Part shown: piece by piece, positions 1-10,913 of the stretch | Position numbering within the stretch: position 1 is the first letter of the stretch | Layout of the letters: every line of letters begins with the position of its first letter | Assembly (NCBI GenBank): GCA_964534375.1 | Contig: CAZHPN010000192.1 | Location: 1 to 10,913, forward strand | Direction: 5' to 3' | DNA length: 10,913 nucleotides | From: an uncultured bacterium | Lineage (GTDB): Bacteria; Lernaellota; Lernaellaia; Lernaellales; Lernaellaceae | The notes under the pieces: model-generated | Told to the model about the DNA's origin: nothing | Databases searched by the model: none | The model's input: only the letters and a program-made list of their open reading frames with translations | Translations under genes and position numbers: made by a program

Positions 1-446
1 ATCGTCTTGTCGATTTCCATGATGTCGAAGCTCATCTGGTCCAGCACGTCGAGCAGGTCGTCTTGAAAATCGCTGTCGGCCTTGTCGATTTCGTCGATGA
101 GCAGCACCGTGCGTTTGGCGCTGGTGAACGCCTGGCCGATCTTGCCCATGCGGATGTACTGGTTGATGTCGGCGACGTTGCGGCCGCTGTCGTGGAAGCG
201 GCTGTCATTGAGCCGCGTGAGCGTATCGTAGAGATACAGGGCGTCGACCGCTTTCATGTTGCTCTTCACGTTGAGTTGAATCAGCGGCATGCCGAGGTTC
301 TCGGCGATCGCGTGCGCGAGCAGCGTCTTGCCAGTGCCCGGCTCGCCCTTGAGCAACAGCGGCAACTCCAGCCGGATCGCGACGTTGACCACCCGCCCGA
401 GTTCTTCATCCAAAATGTACGTCTTCGCGCCGGTGAACTGCGCCAT
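1..446 (-). CDS. MoxR-family AAA+ ATPase, 3' end truncated by the window edge
   Basis: Not in the ORF track; translated by hand from ATG at 444-446: MAQFTGAKTYILDEELGRVVNVAIRLELPLLLKGEPGTGKTLLAHAIAENLGMPLIQLNVKSNMKAVDALYLYDTLTRLNDSRF...VLLIDEIDKADSDFQDDLLDVLDQMSF. It has Walker A (GEPGTGKT), Walker B (LLIDEIDK) and the MoxR-type 'DKAD..F..DLL' segment. SD AAGGAGG at 451-457. Confidence 0.93.
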   Translation of the reverse strand, partial: MAQFTGAKTYILDEELGRVVNVAIRLELPLLLKGEPGTGKTLLAHAIAENLGMPLIQLNVKSNMKAVDALYLYDTLTRLNDSRFHDSGRNVADINQYIRMGKIGQAFTSAKRTVLLIDEIDKADSDFQDDLLDVLDQMSFDIMEIDKT

Positions 447-789: not shown

Positions 790-1122
790 TCAGATCAGCT
801 TTTCCAGAGCCGCGCTCAAGACCGGTAAGTCATGGTGGACGATTTCCCAGACGATCTCGACATCCAGGCCGAAATAATCGTGCGCGATTCGGTTTCGCAA
901 GCCGGCGAGTTGCCGCCAAGGAATTCCCGGATGAAGCGCCGTAAATCCCGCCGGAAATTGCTTCGTCGCTTCGCCAATGATTTCCAAATTGCGGACGACC
1001 GCATCGATCGATTTTTCGTCTTGCAAAAAGGCGGCGCGATCCAACCGGGCCACGTAGCGCTGAATTTTTCCCACAGCGTTTCTAATATCTTCGAGGAGCA
1101 GATCGACGTCGCGTTTAGGCAT
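790..1122 (-). CDS. hepT: HEPN / DUF86 RNase toxin (HepT-like), 110 aa
   Basis: Family signature 'DAVVRNLEIIGEA...IPWRQLAGLRNRIAHDYFGLD.EIVW' with an intact R-x4-H-x-Y motif (RNRIAHDY). Overlaps the upstream MNT gene by 8 nt. Confidence 0.93.
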   Translation of the reverse strand: MPKRDVDLLLEDIRNAVGKIQRYVARLDRAAFLQDEKSIDAVVRNLEIIGEATKQFPAGFTALHPGIPWRQLAGLRNRIAHDYFGLDVEIVWEIVHHDLPVLSAALEKLI

Positions 1123-1420
1123 CGATCAACTCGCCCTCGATCCGGAGCCACAGTGATGGTTTGATTGCGCGCCGCGAGACCAAGTCCACCGGCCGGCCGA
1201 GGGCCCGCTCGATTTCATCGCCCAACTCGACGAAGCGCAGGCCGATCGACGGGTCCACTTCGACCAGCACGTCCACGTCGCTGTCCTCCCTGGCGTCACC
1301 GCGAGCCCAGGAGCCGAAGAGGGCCAGACGCCGGATCGGATAACGCCGACCGAGAATCGCCCGCTGCTCGCGCAATCGCGCGAGAATTTCCTGCCGCGTC
1401 GCCCGGATTTCCGCCGCCAT
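1115..1420 (-). CDS. mntA: Minimal nucleotidyltransferase (MNT) antitoxin (MntA-like), 101 aa
   Basis: Pol-beta-type motif FGSWARGD...DSDVD (GS-x10-DxD) and 'LGRPVDLVS'. Strong SD GAGGAGGTGA at 1424-1433. Directly upstream of the HEPN gene. Confidence 0.93.
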   Translation of the reverse strand: MAAEIRATRQEILARLREQRAILGRRYPIRRLALFGSWARGDAREDSDVDVLVEVDPSIGLRFVELGDEIERALGRPVDLVSRRAIKPSLWLRIEGELIDA

Positions 1421-1590: not shown

Positions 1591-2976
1591 ATGAAACGAC
1601 TCGTATTCTTTTACCCGCCGCGGACGCCGCGCGACGCCTTCTGGCTGACGGCGACCGCCGGCATTGTCGGCGGTCTGGCCATCATTTGGGCGATTGCGCC
1701 CCTGACCGGATTGAGCCTGAAACTCGGCGGCACGGCGCACGACGGCTTTCTGGAACTGGCGCGGTCGCTTGCGGAAGATCGCGGCTATATCTTCGGTCCC
1801 GGCGAGCCGCACGTTTTGCACCGGCCGCCGCTGTATCCGTTTCTCATCATGCCGCTGACCGTGCTGCCCGCCTGGGCCCTGCGCCCGGCGCTGGTCATCG
1901 TGCAGGGCTTCCTGCTCGGGGCGCTCGGCATGCTGCTCTTTCGCCTGGCGTTGCGTCTCTTCGGCGAACGGGCCGCGCAGGCCTCGCTGGCGCTGCTGCT
2001 GGCTTACCCGTGGACGTACTGGCACGTGAAGAACCCGATGGCGATCGTCTTGCAGGCGGTGCTGTACCTGGCGCTGTGCGAAACCGCGCTCTTTCTTTAT
2101 CTCGACGAGCCGCCCGAACCGCAAGCGTCAGCCCGCCACTGGCCGCGGTTCGACGCCTGCCTCAACCTCGGCCTGCTCGCCGGCGCCGCAATCCTCACCC
2201 ACGGCACGATGCTCATTTCGGCGACGGCGGTCTTGTTTTTGCTCTTCGCGGCCGGCGTCTGGCGCCGTTCGACGCGCCTCGCGGCGACGGCCGCAGCGGC
2301 GCTGGCGATCGCCGTGTTCATGGTCGCGCCGTGGACGATCCGCAATTGGCGCGTGGCGCATCAATTCATCCCGGTGACCAGCAACTCGGGCCTCGCCTAT
2401 TTCGCCGGCAACGCCCACTGGGGCATCGGCGGGCCGCGGGTCAAGCCGTTTGGCGACGACATCGCCGTCGCGCTGCAGCACGCGAACATCGCCGCTGCGC
2501 GCCGGCTCGACATCTCCTTCTTCGGCGCGCTCGACCCGCAGCTTTCGGCGGAACTCGACGCGCGCGCGAAACAGCACATGCGCGCGCACCCGGGTCTGGT
2601 CGCGTGGAAATCCCTGCTCAACTTGATGGAGGATTTTTTCCCGCTGTTCGGCGACGCGATCCTGTCGCCCAAATCGTCGGCGAGCCTCGTGCTGAGCGAA
2701 AACGCGCTGCTCTCGCTGGTCCATCTGGCGTTGCTCGCGTTCGCCGCGCTCGGCCTGCGGCGACTGGCGCCGGTCGCGGGCGTGTCGCGGGCGACGGCGG
2801 CCGTGGCCCTCGCGGCGCCGGTCGTCATCTACGTCGCGCCGTATCTGCCGTTTCTGACCTACGTCGGCCACGCCCAGTACACGTTCGGGACGATGCCGTT
2901 TCTCGACGCGGCGGCGGCCGTCGGGTTTCTGTCGCTGCTGCGGACGTCGCCGGCGCCGGCCGGAGATAACGCATGA
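1591..2976 (+). CDS. GT-C fold membrane glycosyltransferase (ArnT/PMT-like), 461 aa
   Basis: Many hydrophobic helices. Early loop Asp ('HDGFLELARSL') and 'HRPPLYP', plus the family-typical 'APWTIRNW...FIPVTSNSGLAYFAGN'. Strong GC3 bias. Stop overlaps the next start (ATGA at 2973-2976). Confidence 0.8.
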   Translation: MKRLVFFYPPRTPRDAFWLTATAGIVGGLAIIWAIAPLTGLSLKLGGTAHDGFLELARSLAEDRGYIFGPGEPHVLHRPPLYPFLIMPLTVLPAWALRPALVIVQGFLLGALGMLLFRLALRLFGERAAQASLALLLAYPWTYWHVKNPMAIVLQAVLYLALCETALFLYLDEPPEPQASARHWPRFDACLNLGLLAGAAILTHGTMLISATAVLFLLFAAGVWRRSTRLAATAAAALAIAVFMVAPWTIRNWRVAHQFIPVTSNSGLAYFAGNAHWGIGGPRVKPFGDDIAVALQHANIAAARRLDISFFGALDPQLSAELDARAKQHMRAHPGLVAWKSLLNLMEDFFPLFGDAILSPKSSASLVLSENALLSLVHLALLAFAALGLRRLAPVAGVSRATAAVALAAPVVIYVAPYLPFLTYVGHAQYTFGTMPFLDAAAAVGFLSLLRTSPAPAGDNA

Positions 2977-3860
2977 CCGCCGCTGAAAAGCCGCCCGAAC
3001 CGGCGCGGTGCTGGGTTTGCGATTCGCCGCGCCTCGCGCGCTGGCGCGACGCGACGACCGTCGGGCCGCTGACGAGCGCCGATTTTCGCATCACCGACGC
3101 CCACTACGGCCGCACCGCGGCGATCGAGCGCTGCGCCGACTGCGGCTTTCGCCAATGCGCCGAGTTGGCCGACGCGTTGCGCTACTACGAAACGCTCGAC
3201 GACCCGGGCTACGAGGAGAGCGCCGGCGAACGGGCGCGCCAGATGGCCGATCTGCTCGCCTTGCTGCGGCGCTTCAAGCCGGCCGGGCGGCTGCTCGACA
3301 TCGGCGCGGGCAGCGGCATCTTGCTCGCCGAGGCGCAACGGCTCGGCTACGCGGCGGAGGGCGTCGAGCCCTCGCACTGGCTCGCCGAACGCGCCGCGGC
3401 CAAGGGGCTGACGGTGCATTGGGGCACGCTGCCGCACGCCGGGCTGCGGCCGCCGTACGACGCGGCGCTGCTGATCGACGTGATCGAGCACGTCGCCGAT
3501 CCGCTCGGGCTGCTGGCGCAGGCGCGCGACGTGCTGGCGCCGGACGGCGTCGGCCTCGTGGTCACGCCCGACATCGACTCGTTCGCCGCGCGCCGGCTGG
3601 GCGCCCGCTGGTGGCACTGTCGCGTCGCCCACATCGGCTACTTCAATCGCAGCACGCTGCTGCGGGCGCTGGACCGCGCCGGCCTGACGCCGCTGCACGT
3701 GATGCGGCCGCGCTGGCATTTCAGCACGGCCTACCTCGCCCAGCGCCTGCCGGTCTATGTGCCGTTCCTGCGGCGCTGGAACCCGCTCGCCCGCCTGCCC
3801 GAGGTTATTGTGCCGTTGAATTTCTTCGACTCGCTGGGCGTGGTATTCTGTAAGAAGTAG
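2973..3860 (+). CDS. Class I SAM-dependent methyltransferase with N-terminal CxxC...CxxC putative Zn site, 295 aa
   Basis: Motif I 'LLDIGAGSG', plus 'GVEPS', 'DVIEHVADP', 'VVTPD' and 'HIGYFNRSTL'. CWVC and CADC pairs at the N-terminus. ATGA coupling to the GT gene. Confidence 0.9.
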   Translation: MTAAEKPPEPARCWVCDSPRLARWRDATTVGPLTSADFRITDAHYGRTAAIERCADCGFRQCAELADALRYYETLDDPGYEESAGERARQMADLLALLRRFKPAGRLLDIGAGSGILLAEAQRLGYAAEGVEPSHWLAERAAAKGLTVHWGTLPHAGLRPPYDAALLIDVIEHVADPLGLLAQARDVLAPDGVGLVVTPDIDSFAARRLGARWWHCRVAHIGYFNRSTLLRALDRAGLTPLHVMRPRWHFSTAYLAQRLPVYVPFLRRWNPLARLPEVIVPLNFFDSLGVVFCKK

Positions 3861-3874
3861 TCAGAAGTCAGAAG
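3851..3874 (+). repeat. Short heptamer repeat TCAGAAG at the methyltransferase stop
   Basis: taagaag (3851-3857), tag, tcagaag (3861-3867), tcagaag (3868-3874). Confidence 0.55.
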
Positions 3875-3899
3875 CGGGACGAGCAAACGAAGGGAAGCC

Positions 3900-4880
3900 A
3901 TGATTCGGCCATATTTGCAAATTGCGCGGCCCGACCATTGGTTCAAGAACCTGTTCATGCTGCCGGGCCTGGCCGTCGCGTTGCTGCTCAAACCGGAGCG
4001 CCTCGCCGGCGCCTGGCTGCCGTTTCTGCTCGGCGTGGTCGCCGCCTGCCTGACCGCCTCGGCGAACTACGCGATCAACGAATACCTCGACCGCGAATAC
4101 GACAAGCGGCACCCGATCAAGAAAAATCGCCCGAGCGCCGGGGGGCTGATCCGCCGGCGCTGGGTCGTGCTCGAATGGACGCTGCTCGCGGCGGCCAGCC
4201 TGGCGCTCGCCTGGGCGATCGGCTTTTTCTTCTTCGTCGTCACCGTCTGGTTCCTGCTGATGGGCGTGATCTACAACGTCAAACCGCTGCGCACCAAAGA
4301 CGTGCCCTATCTCGATGTGCTGTCGGAATCGATCAACAACCCGATCCGCTTTCTGCTTGGCTGGGCGACGGCAATGCCGGCCTTCGCGCCGCCCCCCGGG
4401 GCGCCGTTGTCGTTCCACTATTTCGACCAGATTCTGGCGACCCAGCTTCCGCCCAGCAGCGTGATGATGTCGTATTGGTTCGGCGGCGCGTTCCTGATGG
4501 CGGTCAAACGCTACGCCGAATTCCGCCAGATCGGCGACCCCGCGGTCGCAGCGTCGTACCGCCGCTCGTTCCAGCATTACACGCCGGAAAAGCTGCTGGT
4601 CTCGTCGTTTTTCTACGCCCTGAACGCGTCGTTTTTCCTGGCGATCTTCCTGATCAAATATCGCATCGAATTCCTGCTGACCTTCCCGCTTTTTTCACTG
4701 CTCTTCGCGTGGTATCTGCACATCGGCTTCAAAGAGAACTCCGCCGCCCAGCACCCCGAAAAGCTCTACCGCGAACGGTCGTTCATGTTCTTCGTCTTGC
4801 TGCTGGTCCTGGTCGTCTTCGCGCTGTTCGTCGTCGACGTCCCGAAGCTGGGCTGGCTGCTGCGGAAGAACTTTTACTAG
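3900..4880 (+). CDS. UbiA-family prenyltransferase, decaprenyl-phosphate phosphoribosyltransferase (DPPR synthase)-like, 326 aa
   Basis: 'RPDHWFKN', first acidic motif 'NYAINEYLDREYDKRHPIKKNRP', 'YN...KDVPYLDV' and 'KRYAE' fit the DPPR-synthase branch of UbiA. Multiple TM helices. Confidence 0.85.
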   Translation: MIRPYLQIARPDHWFKNLFMLPGLAVALLLKPERLAGAWLPFLLGVVAACLTASANYAINEYLDREYDKRHPIKKNRPSAGGLIRRRWVVLEWTLLAAASLALAWAIGFFFFVVTVWFLLMGVIYNVKPLRTKDVPYLDVLSESINNPIRFLLGWATAMPAFAPPPGAPLSFHYFDQILATQLPPSSVMMSYWFGGAFLMAVKRYAEFRQIGDPAVAASYRRSFQHYTPEKLLVSSFFYALNASFFLAIFLIKYRIEFLLTFPLFSLLFAWYLHIGFKENSAAQHPEKLYRERSFMFFVLLLVLVVFALFVVDVPKLGWLLRKNFY

Positions 4881-5106: not shown

Positions 5107-6273
5107 TCACCCGAGTTTGGACAGCGCTCCGCGGATGTTCTTCAGCGCCTTGTCGATGTTGGCGACCGAGTTGGCGTAGGAAAAACGCAGATAGCCTTCG
5201 CCGTAGGCGCCGAAGGCCGTGCCGGAAAGCGCCGCGACGCCGGCCTCGTTCATCAGGAAATTCTCCAGGAACGAACTCGTCTGGCCGAGCTTCTTTACGT
5301 TCGGGAAAACGTAGAACGCCCCCTTCGGCCGCACGCACGAGAAACCGGGCAGATCGTTCAGGCCGTCGACGATGAAATCGCGGCGTTTGCGAAATTCCTC
5401 GACCATCCGCGCCGCCTCGTCCTGCGGGCCGCGCAGGGCTTCGAGGCAGGCGTATTGCACGAAGCTGTTGGTGCAGGAATTCGAGTTGGTCATCAGCCGC
5501 GTCACGTGCGTCGCCAGTTCCTTGGGCATGATGCCGTAGCCGGCGCGCCAGCCGGTCATCGCGTACGTTTTCGAGAAACCGTCGAGGATGATCAGGCGGT
5601 CGGCGACGCCGGGCTCGCGCGCGATGGTCTCGAACTCGCCTTCGTAAAGAATATTGATATAGATTTCGTCGGCGAAGATCCAGATGCCGCGCTCGCGGGC
5701 GATTTTCGCCACCGCGGCCAGGTCGGCCCGCGTCAGCACGCCGCCGGTCGGGTTTTGCGGCGAATTGAGGATAATCATCCGCGTCTTGTCGGTGACCAGG
5801 CGCTGGAGGTGCTCGACGTCGAACGAGAACGCGCGCTCCTCCAGCAGCGGCAGCGCGACCGGCTTGGCGCCGATGAAGCGAATGACGGATTCGTAAATGG
5901 GGAACCCGGGATTGGGATAAATGACTTCGTCGCCTTCGTTGGCGATCGCCAGCAGCGCAAAGAAAATGATCGGCTTGGCGCCCGGCGTGACCACGACCTG
6001 CTCGGGTGCGAACGTCAGGCCGCGGCGCGCGCCGGCGTCGCGGGCGATCGTCTCGCGCAACTCCGGCAGGCCGGCCGACGGACCGTAATGCGTGAAGCCT
6101 TTGTCGAGCCCGTCTTTCGCCGCGGCGACGATATTGGCGGGCGTCGCAAAATCCGGCTCGCCGATTTCCAGGTGCACGATTTCGCGCCCTTTGGCCTCGA
6201 GGGCGCGGGCGCGGGCCAGCACTTCAAACGCGGTTTCGGTGCCCAAGCGGCTGATTCGTTCGGCAATTTGCAC
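5107..6273 (-). CDS. Aspartate-aminotransferase-like enzyme translated from an internal GTG start (388 aa)
   Basis: GGAGGT (6278-6283), 4 nt, then GTG (6271-6273), in frame with the long ORF. The product begins M-QIAERISRLGTETAFEVLARA, the normal N-terminus and length for this family. Confidence 0.75.
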   Translation of the reverse strand: MQIAERISRLGTETAFEVLARARALEAKGREIVHLEIGEPDFATPANIVAAAKDGLDKGFTHYGPSAGLPELRETIARDAGARRGLTFAPEQVVVTPGAKPIIFFALLAIANEGDEVIYPNPGFPIYESVIRFIGAKPVALPLLEERAFSFDVEHLQRLVTDKTRMIILNSPQNPTGGVLTRADLAAVAKIARERGIWIFADEIYINILYEGEFETIAREPGVADRLIILDGFSKTYAMTGWRAGYGIMPKELATHVTRLMTNSNSCTNSFVQYACLEALRGPQDEAARMVEEFRKRRDFIVDGLNDLPGFSCVRPKGAFYVFPNVKKLGQTSSFLENFLMNEAGVAALSGTAFGAYGEGYLRFSYANSVANIDKALKNIRGALSKLG

Positions 6274-8745
6274 AGCGACCTCCGTGGGATTGGCGACTCG
6301 GGGCGCCGACGGCGAAGCGGACTTCAGCGCGGCCGCGGCGTCCCCATTTTTTCCTTTTTCCTTCCCGGCGCATTCCATGAACCGCGCGTAGTCCAGCACC
6401 GCGGCCGCCAGGGCCGGGCCGCTCAGGCCGCCTTCTTCCATGACCTTCGCCGCGGCGCCGCTGCCGAGATAGCGGCCGGCGAGGAACGGGTGCAGCAGCC
6501 GCCGGCGGCCCGCGTACGACGTCACCCAGCGGTGCATCGTCGCGGGCGTGAAGCCGGTGATGCCCATCGCCTCGCGCGCGCGCGCCTCGGGATAAATCGC
6601 GAGCTGTTCCGCCTCCGGCAGCAGGTCGAACAATTCGGCGCTGGCGATGTAATAGACGTTCATGTTCAGCTTTTCGCGGCGCAGCACCGGCAGCACGTCG
6701 GCGACGAAGGCGACGCCGATCTCGCTGCCTTGCAGCACGAGCGTGCCGTGATACGGCCGCCGTTCGGGGTCGCCGGCGATGAGGCGGCAGACGCCCTTGA
6801 CCGACGCTTCCGGCGGCGGCAGGCCGAGCGCCGCGCGGTCGGGGACGATCTCGTTCGGCCGCGTCACGAACGGGCAAAGGACGGCCGGGCGGGCGCGCAG
6901 GCCGGCCAGCAGCAGCGGCCACGCCTCTTGCGCGTCCCATGGCGTCAGCGTGATGAGCGCGCCGCGCGGAAAATTTTCCTGGAGCAGTTGCAGGCACTGC
7001 GGGTCGGCGTGCGTCGGCCCGTCCTCGCCGGTTTTCACGCCGGCGTGTGCGTTGACCATGATGAACGTGCGGAACGGCTCGCCGGTCAGTTGCCGCCGCG
7101 CTTGCTGGCCGATGCAATGCAGCCGCGCCGGCACGTGTTCGAGCGCGGCGAGAAAGGCGCCGTACGACGACGTGACGCCGATGTGCCGCCCGTACGCCGA
7201 AAGCCCGGCCATCAGCGCGCCCATCGCGTCTTCGCAGATGCCGCCGACCGGCAGCAGGCGCGAGGCGCGGTTCGCCGCCGTTTGGAAACCCTTGCCGAAC
7301 GCCGCGCCCGTTTTCGCGACGCTCGTCGATTCGAACAAGTCGGCGGAACTGACAATGAACGCGCCGCCGGTTTTTTCGTTGAGCGCGGCCAGCGCGTCGC
7401 CGACCGCGCCGCGCAGCGTGGCCGCCTTGCCGGGCGTCAATTGCAAGGCGGCGGGCGGCGTTTCCAAGCGCAGTTCCGGGTCGTCGTACACGACTTCCAG
7501 ATGCGGGGCGTCGGCGCGCGGCCGGCGCGCGAGCGCGGCAAGCCGGCGTTGCGCCGCGCGCAGGCGGTCGGCGGCGAACCTCGCCGCTGCGGCTTCCTTT
7601 TCCAGCGCGCCGCGGATGCACAGCAGCGTCTGAAAGTACGTCTCCTCGACGGCGGCGGGCGATTTCGCATCGGTGCAGCGCGGGAACCGTACGCCGAATT
7701 CGCGGAACCGCGCCTCGAACGGCGCGGCGACGAATTGGTAGAACGCATCCGAACAGAACGGGTGCCCGGCGCCGTGCGAGGCCCGGCCCTCGAGGCCGTA
7801 ATGCCAGCCCTTCGTCGTGCGGTAGACGATCGCCGTCGGCAAACCGTTGGCCAGCTCCGCGGCTAGGCGCTGGGCGGCGACGACCTGCCGGAAGTCGGCG
7901 CCATCGTCGACCTGGACAACGTTCCACTCGTGCAGGTGCGCCAGTTCGGCCGGGCTCCACTGCACGTAATCGCCGCGCCGGCCGTCTTCGGCGCAGACGC
8001 AATTCGAGTCGATCGAGGCCTGGTTCCAGTCGACGTGCAGCGCGAAATTCGCCAGGTTCGCCGCCGACGCGCCGGCCAGCGCCTCGTGGACGCGGCCCGG
8101 CGTCAGGCCGCCTTCGCCCTCCAGCGCGTGAATCCGCGGCGGCTGCGCCGGATAAATATCGAGCGCGCCGAGCGCCAGCCCCATCGCCGCCGGCACGCCC
8201 ACGCCCGAGGCCCCGGTCGCCAGGCTCGCAAACGGTGTCGCCGGGGTCGGGTGGCCGTCAAGCGCCTTGGCGCGATATTGGTGGAACAAAGGCGTGTCCT
8301 GCGTCGGATTGCGGCGGAAACCGAGCAGGTCTTCGAGGCGGAGTTGGAATTTCTCCTCGGGCAGCAGGTCCGGCGCGGCGATGCGGGCCAGCTCGTTGCG
8401 TAGCGCCCACGACGCGTACAGGCCCAGCGCCTTGTGGCCGGCGGCGTACACGAGTTGGTCCGCGTGCGGCGCGGTCGGGCGCGAAAAATCGTAGTCGAGG
8501 AACAGGTAGATCAGGCTTTCGACGATGCGGCCCGACGAAATGCTGCCGCCCGGGTGGCCGGAGGTCGGCACGTAGTTGAAGAGCACGCCGCAGAGGGTGC
8601 GATAGGCGAGGTCGATCGTCTCCAGCGCCGCGAAATCGGCGTCGCTCACGTCGAGCGGAATCCGGTCGAGCAGGTCGCGCACGCGGAACATCTGGGAACG
8701 TCGGGGGGCGAACGAAAAGGGCTGCGCCAGGGCGTCGAAAATCAT
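5107..8745 (-). CDS. Transketolase-like ThDP enzyme (aa 1 to ~790) fused in frame to a class I/II PLP-dependent aminotransferase (aa 825-1212)
   Basis: TK motifs: SGHPGG, AAGHK, DGHPT, GEG-x28-N (DWN), SHGAG, SADL, GICE, HAG...GEDGPTH. Aminotransferase motifs: LEIGEPDF, PGAK, NSPQNPTGG, DEIY, DGFSKTYAMTGWRAGY (PLP Lys), PKGAFY, YLRFSYA. GGAG SD upstream of ATG 8743-8745. Confidence 0.85.
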   Translation of the reverse strand: MIFDALAQPFSFAPRRSQMFRVRDLLDRIPLDVSDADFAALETIDLAYRTLCGVLFNYVPTSGHPGGSISSGRIVESLIYLFLDYDFSRPTAPHADQLVYAAGHKALGLYASWALRNELARIAAPDLLPEEKFQLRLEDLLGFRRNPTQDTPLFHQYRAKALDGHPTPATPFASLATGASGVGVPAAMGLALGALDIYPAQPPRIHALEGEGGLTPGRVHEALAGASAANLANFALHVDWNQASIDSNCVCAEDGRRGDYVQWSPAELAHLHEWNVVQVDDGADFRQVVAAQRLAAELANGLPTAIVYRTTKGWHYGLEGRASHGAGHPFCSDAFYQFVAAPFEARFREFGVRFPRCTDAKSPAAVEETYFQTLLCIRGALEKEAAAARFAADRLRAAQRRLAALARRPRADAPHLEVVYDDPELRLETPPAALQLTPGKAATLRGAVGDALAALNEKTGGAFIVSSADLFESTSVAKTGAAFGKGFQTAANRASRLLPVGGICEDAMGALMAGLSAYGRHIGVTSSYGAFLAALEHVPARLHCIGQQARRQLTGEPFRTFIMVNAHAGVKTGEDGPTHADPQCLQLLQENFPRGALITLTPWDAQEAWPLLLAGLRARPAVLCPFVTRPNEIVPDRAALGLPPPEASVKGVCRLIAGDPERRPYHGTLVLQGSEIGVAFVADVLPVLRREKLNMNVYYIASAELFDLLPEAEQLAIYPEARAREAMGITGFTPATMHRWVTSYAGRRRLLHPFLAGRYLGSGAAAKVMEEGGLSGPALAAAVLDYARFMECAGKEKGKNGDAAAALKSASPSAPRVANPTEVAVQIAERISRLGTETAFEVLARARALEAKGREIVHLEIGEPDFATPANIVAAAKDGLDKGFTHYGPSAGLPELRETIARDAGARRGLTFAPEQVVVTPGAKPIIFFALLAIANEGDEVIYPNPGFPIYESVIRFIGAKPVALPLLEERAFSFDVEHLQRLVTDKTRMIILNSPQNPTGGVLTRADLAAVAKIARERGIWIFADEIYINILYEGEFETIAREPGVADRLIILDGFSKTYAMTGWRAGYGIMPKELATHVTRLMTNSNSCTNSFVQYACLEALRGPQDEAARMVEEFRKRRDFIVDGLNDLPGFSCVRPKGAFYVFPNVKKLGQTSSFLENFLMNEAGVAALSGTAFGAYGEGYLRFSYANSVANIDKALKNIRGALSKLG

Positions 8746-8809
8746 CGGTTGTCTCCACTTGGCGGACGCCAGCCGCCCGAGCGCGGGTTGCGCCCGAAAA
8801 GGCGGACAG

Positions 8810-8839
8810 AGAGTAGCGCGGCTCGAAGGCGAAAATCAA
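8810..8839 (-). promoter_or_regulatory. Putative sigma70 promoter upstream of the transketolase
   Basis: Minus strand TTGATT (8834-8839), 18-nt spacer, TACTCT (8810-8815), about 65 nt before the ATG. Confidence 0.4.
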
Positions 8840-8867
8840 TCGCGTTTGGTCCAAGGGCAAGCGAAAA

Positions 8868-9926
8868 CTAAAAGTCTACCCCTTTGTAGGCGGGCGCAGA
8901 CATAATACCGGCCCCGCTGTCGTACGTGGGAGTCTTACGCAAGTCCCGAGTCTCGAAAAACATATCGTTAATGCAATCCCGAATTTCCTCCGCAGACATC
9001 TGGCAAAGATCAGCCATCACCGCTTTTTTGTCGCGGGGGGCCATTTTCGCAAATTCGGCCTTCGTGGCGTCCCAACGAGCCGCGCGGCCAATACGGGCCT
9101 GTTCGCCGGGCAGGAACTGCGAAAAATGTTCGAGGCTTGTGTCGGAGGCGCAATCGGGCGAGGGACTCGGACCTTCCCCGCCCTCGGTTTCGCCGAACCG
9201 GTTAATCTGAAGTTGCCGTTTTTTGGTCAATTGCTGGTCGCGAATCTTATCGCTCGATTCGTCCGCACCGGTCGCTTTTTGCGGCGCGGCGCCGGCAGGG
9301 GCGGAAACGTCTTCGCGCATTTTTAATTCGGCTAATTCGGCGAGAAGCTTACGACGGTTCAGACCCTGCCGAATTTCCCGCTCACCGGTTTTACCGATCA
9401 GCGTCTCAATCGTCGCGCACTTCGCGCTCGGCGTCATGGCCATGTACCCGTGTTTTACGTTTTCGATTTCGTCCCACGAAAAATAGTTGGCTTTTTGCAG
9501 GAGCGCGACGAAGTTGGACGGGCTTACATTAGCGCTGCAACTCGTTTTCTCATCGCGGCACCCACTTCCCATTGCCGCAGCGCCGAGTAAGAGCGCCGCG
9601 GCGACAAGCGCAGCCGTCGGGCGCGGCTTCGTTTTCAGCGAGGTCGGAACGCGCGCGGCCAGCAATGCGGCCAGTTCGTCGGCGAGCGCCGGCGCGTTCA
9701 GGGTTTCGCATTCTGGCGCGGGCAAACGCGTGGCGTCGTGGCAGTCGAGCGCCGCCAGCAATTCGCGCAGGCGTGCCCGGGCGTCGGGGTCATCGCGCCG
9801 CGAGCGCACGCGCGAAATCAACCACGCCTCAACCTCGCGCGCCGAGGCGGTCGGCGGGGGCGCGGCTTGCAACGCGTCGAGAAACGCGCGAGCCTTTTGC
9901 GCCACGGTCAGTTCCAAGCGCGACAT
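8868..9926 (-). CDS. Hypothetical membrane-anchored/lipoprotein-like protein with duplicated Cys-anchored module and C-terminal YKGVDF, 352 aa (paralog 1)
   Basis: SD-like AAGGGAG before ATG 9924-9926. Clear homology to the adjacent upstream ORF. Basic patch, hydrophobic helix and MGSGC at aa 98-123. Confidence 0.85.
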   Translation of the reverse strand: MSRLELTVAQKARAFLDALQAAPPPTASAREVEAWLISRVRSRRDDPDARARLRELLAALDCHDATRLPAPECETLNAPALADELAALLAARVPTSLKTKPRPTAALVAAALLLGAAAMGSGCRDEKTSCSANVSPSNFVALLQKANYFSWDEIENVKHGYMAMTPSAKCATIETLIGKTGEREIRQGLNRRKLLAELAELKMREDVSAPAGAAPQKATGADESSDKIRDQQLTKKRQLQINRFGETEGGEGPSPSPDCASDTSLEHFSQFLPGEQARIGRAARWDATKAEFAKMAPRDKKAVMADLCQMSAEEIRDCINDMFFETRDLRKTPTYDSGAGIMSAPAYKGVDF

Positions 9927-9958
9927 AGCTTGACTCCCTTATTCGGCGCCGCCGGGGA

Positions 9959-10913
9959 CTATAAATCCACGCCTTTGTAAAGGACCGCGTAATTGATGTC
10001 GCCCGAGCGATCGTATTTCGGCCCCGCTTTCGGGTTTTCAGTTCCATAAAACATTTCCTCGATGCACTTGCGAATTTCGTCCGGCGACATTTGGCAAAAG
10101 TCGGCCATCACCGCCTTTCGATCCCGGGGGGCCATCGATTCGAATTCGACCTTGACCGCGGCGTTATCGCGCCGCACAGCCCCCCACGCGTTGCGTTCGT
10201 CCGGCAGAAATTGCGACAAATGTTCGAGACTCGTGTCGGAGGCGCAATCGGGAAACGAACTAGGATGTCCCTCGTCCTTGATTTCATCGGGCCGAGCGGC
10301 GTCGTATCGTCGATTTTGCCTGTCGCGAATTTCGTTGCGTAGGATCGTCAACGCGCTAGGAACGGGGCCGTCGAGAAAAACTTGCAGAGCAAAGCTATCG
10401 ATTGGCGGGTCCTCAGCCTTCGCGGCCCCTTTTTTCTTCTTGAATTGCTCGTCGACATCGGAAACTACGAGCGCCAAAAGCTCATATTCGGAATCGCCCC
10501 GGCCGTAAATTCCGGAAAGCGTGCTCCGTAGCCGGCCGGGCATTCGGTGGCTTATTTTCAGATCGTCGAGAACCTTAATTCTGTCGATTCCGGGCGTATA
10601 AGATCGCTCGCTCACGTTTTCGCCATTCAGCGCCCTTATGTATCCGCATTTCATGCCGGGCGTCATGGCCGCGTACTCGCCCTTCGCGCTTTCGATTTCG
10701 TCCCACGAAAAATAATTCGACTTTTGCAGCAGCGAGACGAAGTTGGCTGTGCTGGTGTCGACTCCGCAACGAACTTTCCCGCCGCGGCAACCGCCTAGCG
10801 CCGCGCCGCAAATCAGCAGCGCCGCGGCGATCAGGGCCGTGGTTGGCCGGCGTTTCGTGTTCAATAACGATGGCACGCGGGCGGCGAGCAGAGAGGCCAG
10901 TTCGTCGGCGAGA
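9959..10913 (-). CDS. Paralog 2 of the same uncharacterised family, 5' end outside the window, C-terminal YKGVDL
   Basis: The frame is open to the window edge and reads LADELASLLAARVPSLLNTKRRPTTALIAAALLICGAALGGC, matching paralog 1 (LADELAALLAARVPTSLKTKPRPTAALVAAALLLGAAAMGSGC). The GTG at 10876 is therefore not the true start. Shared blocks include LLQKxNYFSWDEIE and PDCASDTSLEHxSQFLP. Confidence 0.85.
   Translation of the reverse strand, partial: LADELASLLAARVPSLLNTKRRPTTALIAAALLICGAALGGCRGGKVRCGVDTSTANFVSLLQKSNYFSWDEIESAKGEYAAMTPGMKCGYIRALNGENVSERSYTPGIDRIKVLDDLKISHRMPGRLRSTLSGIYGRGDSEYELLALVVSDVDEQFKKKKGAAKAEDPPIDSFALQVFLDGPVPSALTILRNEIRDRQNRRYDAARPDEIKDEGHPSSFPDCASDTSLEHLSQFLPDERNAWGAVRRDNAAVKVEFESMAPRDRKAVMADFCQMSPDEIRKCIEEMFYGTENPKAGPKYDRSGDINYAVLYKGVDL

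Follow-up and report, generated by a model that had tools for sequence, protein, structure and literature searches.

Enzymes of the radical S-adenosylmethionine (rSAM) superfamily that carry a SPASM domain have given pyrroloquinoline quinone (PQQ), mycofactocin, darobactin, and many cross-linked peptides, and a new substrate motif usually means new chemistry. MftC joins Val to the terminal Tyr of its substrate in the mycofactocin pathway, and the anaerobic sulfatase-maturating enzymes (anSME, paired with a sulfatase) and QhpD (paired with QhpC) act in the cytoplasm on a whole protein that is exported afterwards. The cores of darobactin, dynobactin, and xenorceptide share a conserved W-[T/S]-[K/R]-S-F, according to a preprint (bioRxiv 10.1101/2024.12.16.628070). 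The stretch analyzed here, referred to as the window, is the entire contig C192 (10,913 nt) from the genome of an uncultured bacterium of the Lernaellota (G000), and two adjacent genes at its right end, paralogs A and B, encode proteins with the C-terminal tails YKGVDF and YKGVDL. We consider it probable that A and B are extra (“orphan”) substrates of a conserved cassette, made up of tailed proteins and two rSAM/SPASM enzymes (rSAM1 and rSAM2), and that these enzymes modify the tail. A maturase of the rSAM/SPASM type was one of the options raised in the initial annotation of this DNA, and it is now supported by gene arrays in this and related genomes, by 25 of the 27 closest public loci, and by a model of the complex.

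Conserved tail and architecture of the tailed proteins

The two genes and their tails are positioned as follows.

8868–9926, minus strand: complete gene of paralog A, with 352 codons and a stop codon
8871–8888, minus strand: YKGVDF tail of A (residues 347 to 352), with the stop codon at 8868–8870
9959–10912, minus strand: paralog B, 317 aa, 5′ end cut at the contig edge, open reading frame (ORF) open
9962–9979, minus strand: YKGVDL tail of B, with the stop codon at 9959–9961

The C-terminal end of A reads PTYDSGAGIMSAPAYKGVDF, i.e., PTYD-SGAGIMSAPA-YKGVDF, and that of B reads PKYDRSGDINYAVLYKGVDL, i.e., PKYD-RSGDINYAVL-YKGVDL, each followed by the stop codon. These ends had been described as PxYD-x10-YKGVD[FL] in two adjacent co-oriented genes, and the 10-residue spacing, with Ile at offset 5 and Ala at offset 8 in both, is confirmed. 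A six-frame scan of the source genome finds five ORFs on two contigs that end in YKGV[DSE][FL], namely, A, B, and three tandem ORFs on contig C256. Relatives were collected by a phmmer search with protein A against 1.84 billion (1.84e9) cluster representatives, which found 29 proteins with 28 to 50% identity to A. All 29 end in YKG[VI]x[FLY] plus 0 to 5 residues (nothing after the motif in 27, D in one, and DRIRR in one), and homologs without the tail, the counterevidence named in the initial annotation, did not appear among them. The invariant alignment columns are Y347, K348, G349, and C308, and the flanks of the tail diverge. The YKGVD-type end thus goes far beyond a chance resemblance and is a family-wide feature, whereas the PxYD-x10 portion of the original pattern is common to A and B alone, which are recent paralogs.

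Tails from public loci take the forms [LVIP]-YKGV[SA]F-P-[EDR]-x, PYRGV[TA]FPE, or Y[LI]GVRFE. A set of 64 distinct tails was chosen by a pattern that fixes the Y, G, V/I, and F/L/Y positions and is therefore informative only at the K and x positions; 8 of these 64 have R, L, I, or Q in place of the Lys. The original suggestion that Tyr and Lys are the target residues thus has to be narrowed, since Lys is dispensable. Only 0 to 6 residues follow the motif in 64/64 of these tails, which is not the layout of sorting signals of the PEP-CTERM, LPXTG, or MYXO-CTERM type. One tailed gene of a Coatesbacteria metagenome-assembled genome (MAG) (L151, 7240–7977, plus strand) has the motif twice near its end (...KYKGVDFS...AYKGVDFS), resembling a two-core precursor.

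The tail was expected to follow a flexible linker, and the AlphaFold2 model agrees, with predicted local distance difference test (pLDDT) values of <50 for residues 327 to 347, and so the tail does not form a strand within the final domain. Among the 29 relatives, the linker can be as short as a few residues or exceed 60, and it is often acidic, with poly-Asp being common. A and B lie in tandem and are paralogous, with 44% identity (E = 2e-74), as would fit a tail that is only the remnant of a recent duplication, with no function of its own. There is hardly any chance that this is correct, given that the motif is retained in 29/29 relatives at 28 to 50% identity, that it also occurs beside rSAM1 homologs of other phyla, and that the adjoining linker varies freely in length and composition.

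Other elements of the two proteins were located from the alignment and the models.

9642–9926, minus strand: N-terminal helical domain of A (~95 residues), from pLDDT (92 to 98) and alignment conservation
9558–9620, minus strand: hydrophobic helix of A (residues 103 to 121) plus Gly-Cys (Cys123), from the alignment and AlphaFold2
8958–9020, minus strand: conserved helix LCQMSAEEIRDCINDMF of A (residues 303 to 323, with the invariant Cys308), from the alignment and the complex model
10787–10843, minus strand: signal/transmembrane helix of B, ending in a lipobox-like ALGG-C, from the sequence

Protein A therefore consists of an N-terminal domain, a signal/transmembrane helix, a small helical domain present twice, a linker, and the YKGVDF tail. 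The tailed proteins (190 to 352 aa) form a family absent from Pfam-A and NCBIfam 20.0, as judged by scans with A, B, the C256 paralog, and five tailed proteins of other loci; there was no NCBIfam match at an E value of ≤1 or ≤0.01, and Pfam/NCBIfam gave only noise (SbcD_C, E = 0.037). A homolog search with the C256 paralog returned only itself, and one with the family alignment returned six proteins, none of which is named by a source.

The N-terminal domain (N-domain) is the best-conserved part of the family and is modeled by AlphaFold2, using the family alignment, as a four-helix domain (residues 1 to 90, pLDDT of 92 to 98) that is presumed to be cytoplasmic. Searches with this model found no Foldseek match in the PDB at an E value of ≤0.001, a top Z of 6.1 in a wide VIA-align search, where the matches were common helical arrangements, and only TM scores of <0.5 without a feature match in the ESM Atlas; failed fold searches such as these do not show the fold to be new. 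The N-domain is followed by K/R residues, a hydrophobic helix of 18 to 20 residues, [ASTG][GAS]-C in 27/29 relatives, and then acidic residues. By its sequence, the hydrophobic segment with its Cys looks like an internal lipoprotein signal peptide, although a start after ~100 residues of the protein is atypical for such a signal. This internal segment, resembling a signal peptide with a lipobox, appears to specify export, and the alternative role first offered for the tail, as an export or anchoring signal, is unsupported. There is no consistent twin-arginine motif before the hydrophobic helix, with RR found in some Myxococcota members only, and thus we make no claim of Tat export. The signal helix is followed by a small domain, duplicated in A and B, whose signature is C..D.S..HF ... 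LC.MSP.EIA.Y. Cys residues at positions 123, 130, and 308 are invariant or nearly so.

The rSAM/SPASM cassette

The initial annotation placed a possible partner enzyme beyond position 10913, but it is not there. The right end of C192 overlaps the start of contig C303 by 55 identical nt, and C303 holds the missing N terminus of B and then a Big_2 protein only. The cassette lies instead on contig C256 of the same genome, where three tailed genes are followed by rSAM1 and then by a gene for rSAM2 fused to a sulfatase-like domain. The last of the three tailed genes ends in a stop codon, and the ATG of rSAM1 follows 1 nt downstream. The rSAM1 protein has 381 aa with Pfam Radical_SAM and SPASM matches, and the second enzyme, of 810 aa, has a Radical_SAM plus SPASM unit fused to a Pfam Sulfatase domain. 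A tblastn search indicates that this is the only such cassette in the source genome. C256 (L010) also carries a degenerate family member (5676–6256, minus strand), in which an N-domain fragment and a C-terminal module ending in RYKGVEF lie in different frames with no signal helix between the two parts.

Three other genomes of the same family (G005, G006, and G007) have related arrays. G005 has three tailed genes, rSAM1, and the rSAM2–sulfatase-like gene, and G006 and G007 match this order as far as their contigs reach. Full-length tailed members occur in 4/17 genomes of the phylum in our collection.

The association was also examined from the enzyme side, by alignment of 28 rSAM1 homologs and by retrieval of 159 public loci with relatives, ranked by phmmer score to rSAM1. 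At scores of at least 256 bits, 25 of 27 loci carry an ORF with a Y.G[VI].[FLY] tail (plus 0 to 6 residues) immediately upstream in the same orientation. Of the remaining two, L147 is cut at the rSAM start, and L154 is on a 3.8-kb contig. Only one (L180) of the ~130 lower-scoring rSAM loci has an adjacent tailed ORF. The pattern matches 38 of 15,337 ORFs overall, of which 35 are in the adjacent position. Most of the upstream tailed proteins also match the N-domain profile, and a second rSAM gene directly follows the first in 22/27 loci. These public loci are from Polyangiaceae, Myxococcales, Deltaproteobacteria MAGs, a Coatesbacteria MAG, and others. The order within the cassette is tailed protein(s), rSAM/SPASM 1, and rSAM/SPASM 2, sometimes with, or fused to, a Thr-type alkaline phosphatase/sulfatase-like domain.

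Both rSAM proteins have a CX3CX2C motif and a seven-Cys SPASM region, with Pfam matches to Radical_SAM and SPASM. Residues C34, C38, and C41 and residues C276, C294, C336, C339, C345, C349, and C366 are invariant in the 28 rSAM1 homologs. The best curated models for both enzymes are TIGR04103 (218 to 256 bits, cutoff of 725) and TIGR03913 (198 to 255 bits, cutoff of 592), and neither enzyme reaches the cutoff of any curated NCBIfam model.

An rSAM/SPASM enzyme that adjoins a Pfam Sulfatase domain, or is fused with one, is reminiscent of an anSME and its sulfatase, and the rSAM proteins could accordingly be thought to mature the fused or adjacent sulfatase-like enzyme, with the tailed proteins being unrelated membrane partners or regulators. 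We regard this as very improbable. The sequence T-A-P-S-V of the sulfatase-like domain aligns to C-S-P-T-R, the formylglycine site of a solved sulfatase, and W-T-x-P-[SA]-hydrophobic is kept in 17/17 aligned cassette homologs in place of C/S-x-P-x-R. With Thr in 17/17 and no C/S-x-P-x-R, there is no formylglycine site, and so the domain is not an anSME client. Furthermore, the sulfatase-like gene is present in 12/27 loci versus 25/27 for the tailed gene, and the top 25 NCBIfam matches of each rSAM protein include no anSME model. The anSME-like reading was rejected on the basis of the missing formylglycine motif. With its Thr nucleophile, the sulfatase-like domain resembles the Thr-type members of the alkaline phosphatase superfamily.

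Model of the complex of rSAM1 with the tail region

The complex was modeled from rSAM1, residues 296 to 352 of A, three 4Fe-4S clusters, and SAM. In this co-folding analysis, the tail region docks on rSAM1 with interface scores from predicted aligned errors (ipSAE) of 0.92, 0.90, and 0.92, compared with 0.01 for the best of three controls. The ipSAE mark used was reached by 116/157 solved complexes and 2/215 mismatched pairs, although these benchmark counts hold only roughly since our own alignments and ligands were used. The pLDDT of the partner is at least 55, and at least 71% of the contacts are common to the runs. Confident contacts on A are residues 303 to 323, including C308, and residues 347 to 351. 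On rSAM1, the contacts are with an N-terminal segment specific to the subfamily, with barrel positions that neighbor invariant residues (Q199, Q201, and around G77 to E79 and N105), and with the SPASM region. The model supports, but does not prove, binding of the tail region of A by rSAM1.

The contacts with the lowest error are those of the helix around C308, not those of the tail. This bears on a different possibility, in which the tail is a docking or sorting tag only and the rSAM enzymes modify other residues (e.g., Cys, giving a thioether) or use the helix and tail as a handle. As examples, the tail could be a Phi-x-Phi-COOH ligand of a periplasmic PDZ protease or a β-signal-like strand for an outer membrane machine; V-x-F-COOH resembles class II PDZ ligands and the C-terminal ends of outer membrane proteins. 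The conservation of C123, C130, and C308, which are invariant or nearly so, and the presence in Myxococcota of a Cys 4 to 8 residues before the Tyr are in keeping with modification elsewhere than in the tail. However, the motif is not always at the C terminus, with P-[EDR]-x after the Phe in Myxococcota and six more residues in two G006 paralogs, which does not fit a free-carboxylate ligand, and no transmembrane helix or basic stretch follows it, unlike in sortase- or exosortase-type signals. Moreover, residues 347 to 351 of the tail are among the confident contacts with the rSAM1 barrel, and the tail occurs together with one rSAM subfamily almost one to one across phyla, as would be expected of a core motif. 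On balance, a tag without modification of the tail is unlikely.

Proposed modification of the tail

We favor modification of the tail by the rSAM enzymes, and the following sequence of events may be envisaged. The cassette on C256 would serve A and B in trans. In the cytoplasm, rSAM1 would dock on the conserved helix (LCxMSxxEI) ahead of the linker, allowing the tail to enter the active-site barrel, and one or both of the rSAM enzymes would install a radical modification in the tail. The likeliest product would be a carbon-carbon or carbon-oxygen cross-link that forms a small ring across Tyr-x-Gly-Val, where the invariant Gly would permit the turn. The N-terminal domain of 95 residues may serve in the cytoplasm as a leader, or handle, through which the protein stays open to modification before export. 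Export would come next, perhaps with lipidation at the Cys and cleavage, and would place the modified tail beyond the cytoplasmic membrane, at the end of a flexible acidic tether.

This could be taken a step further, to a protein-scale version of a ribosomally synthesized and posttranslationally modified peptide (RiPP): an exported lipoprotein, with a cytoplasmic leader domain of its own ahead of the internal signal peptide, whose YKGVxF is made by the two rSAM enzymes into a rigid, darobactin-like macrocyclic strand on an acidic tether and engages an envelope partner or serves as a covalently anchored redox or adhesive end group. Such an outcome seems quite unlikely. If true, the candidate partners would be β-barrels, e.g., the lateral gate of the β-barrel assembly machinery (BAM) of the same or neighboring cells.

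Several points weigh against the proposal that the rSAM enzymes modify the tails of A and B. First, A and B themselves have no rSAM neighbor, with a transketolase-aminotransferase fusion downstream and, via C303, a Big_2 protein upstream, and action in trans therefore has to be assumed; A and B are on a different contig from the cassette, and the adjacency of tailed gene and enzyme holds for C256, G005 to G007, and 25/27 of the closest public loci. Second, no RiPP recognition element (RRE) or PqqD domain and no separate chaperone were found, as rSAM1 consists of Radical_SAM and SPASM only. Third, enzyme-substrate models may pass by virtue of their likeness to solved rSAM-peptide complexes. The sulfatase-like gene, found in 12/27 loci, is missing from 15/27, so its role is not core. 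All of the chemistry of tail modification is inferred, and export of the C-terminal part, if it takes place, would require a cytoplasmic rSAM enzyme to act before translocation. It could also be that the conserved Cys residues are what the enzymes really modify and that the tail is just a docking tag.

A further point comes from a sister family that shares the N-domain and hydrophobic helix but has tails of the form ...WDDDH or ...DDDDDH (L028, at 1608–3986 on the plus strand of G009:C207; L027; L034; and L046). Members of this DDDH-tailed family adjoin genes for rSAM/SPASM enzymes and alkaline phosphatase superfamily proteins (G009 and G016). Since these relatives are also found beside rSAM and alkaline phosphatase-like genes, the N-domain, rather than the tail, could be the common recognition element. 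The DDDH tail may represent a second tail type of a similar system. A further locus in G006 (L025, G006:C135, 3070–6435, plus strand) encodes two exported proteins that end in an acidic spacer and GGCGC.

Other genes of the window and comparison with known systems

The gap between B and A is just 32 nt, which suggests that the two genes are cotranscribed, and the start of A is preceded by a possible ribosome binding site.

9934–9940, minus strand: Shine-Dalgarno-like AAGGGAG, 7 nt 5′ of the ATG of A, read from the sequence

A promoter scan of 8600 to 10913 gave no promoter-like sites, and terminator-like sites were at chance level. Metatranscriptome contigs from three runs of three studies match parts of A (8735–9379) and B (10024–10459) at identities of at least 99%, giving a weak hint that A and B are transcribed. 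Run X4 has no RNA contig over 1457–8736. The RNA contigs leave most of the window uncovered, which is not evidence of silence, and contigs of this kind cannot prove transcription.

Directly downstream of A is a 1,212-aa ORF (5107–8745, minus strand) in which a transketolase-like part (PF00456 and PF02779) is fused to a class I/II aminotransferase (PF00155). The nearest NCBIfam model for this unusual fusion is an aspartate aminotransferase, with a score under its cutoff. On the strand opposite A and B (1591–4880, plus strand), co-oriented genes encode a PMT_2-like glycosyltransferase (a weak match), a Methyltransf_23 protein, and a UbiA family prenyltransferase, and this trio may form an envelope glycolipid module. 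Clustered short repeats of the GCGGAATG type and two copies of a 70-nt direct repeat (89% identity) are found at 534–713, between a fragment of a MoxR-like AAA gene (3–446, minus strand) and a HepT/nucleotidyltransferase toxin-antitoxin pair (790–1122 and 1115–1420, minus strand).

A full-text literature search found nothing on the motif, the tailed family, or this rSAM pairing, and the closest parallels are with described rSAM/SPASM systems. Like the darobactin, dynobactin, and xenorceptide enzymes (DarE, DynA, and XyeB), the enzymes of the cassette would act on a short aromatic core that ends in Phe, at or near the C terminus, with sometimes a few trailing residues. Darobactin-type substrates are peptides of ~50 residues with a Gly-Gly leader, whereas those of the cassette are proteins of 210 to 350 residues with an N-domain and an internal signal/lipobox-like helix. 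Unlike the darobactin type, the cassette is also without protease or transporter genes, and its motif is Y-K-G-V-x-F with an invariant Gly. The rSAM proteins score 57 to 75 bits against the DynA model (NF041298), which has a cutoff of 450.

The mycofactocin precursor MftA (...GVY-COOH), on which a SPASM enzyme acts, likewise has Gly-Val-(x)-aromatic at its C terminus, and the rSAM proteins score 120 to 131 bits against the MftC model (TIGR03962, cutoff of 265). Unlike in mycofactocin loci, there are no genes for an MftB-like RRE, a peptidase, or a glycosyltransferase, and the substrates are large and exported. MftC-like decarboxylation is unlikely because the motif is not always at a free C terminus. 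TIGR04133 (“rSAM_w_lipo”), which from its name we take to describe a pairing of an rSAM/SPASM enzyme with a lipoprotein, gives 132 to 171 bits, versus a cutoff of 425. TIGR03913 (associated with GDL motif peptides) and TIGR04103 (nif11 class) represent peptide-modifying SPASM enzymes with unrelated substrates.

The anSME and QhpD-QhpC systems differ from the cassette in that here the conserved target motif is on a separate protein family and the sulfatase-like domain is without C/S-x-P-x-R. Unlike typical RiPP precursors, the tailed proteins are not short and have no leader for an RRE/PqqD-like domain, having instead a folded N-domain and a signal/transmembrane helix. A folded domain ahead of a signal peptide raises the question of how modification and export are coordinated, and the compact cassette recurs across phyla, including the small wetland phylum of the window, Polyangia/Myxococcota, and a Coatesbacteria MAG. 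An rSAM/SPASM maturase with a ribosomal substrate is of a known kind, while a whole exported, lipoprotein-like substrate with a built-in N-domain is unusual among such systems.

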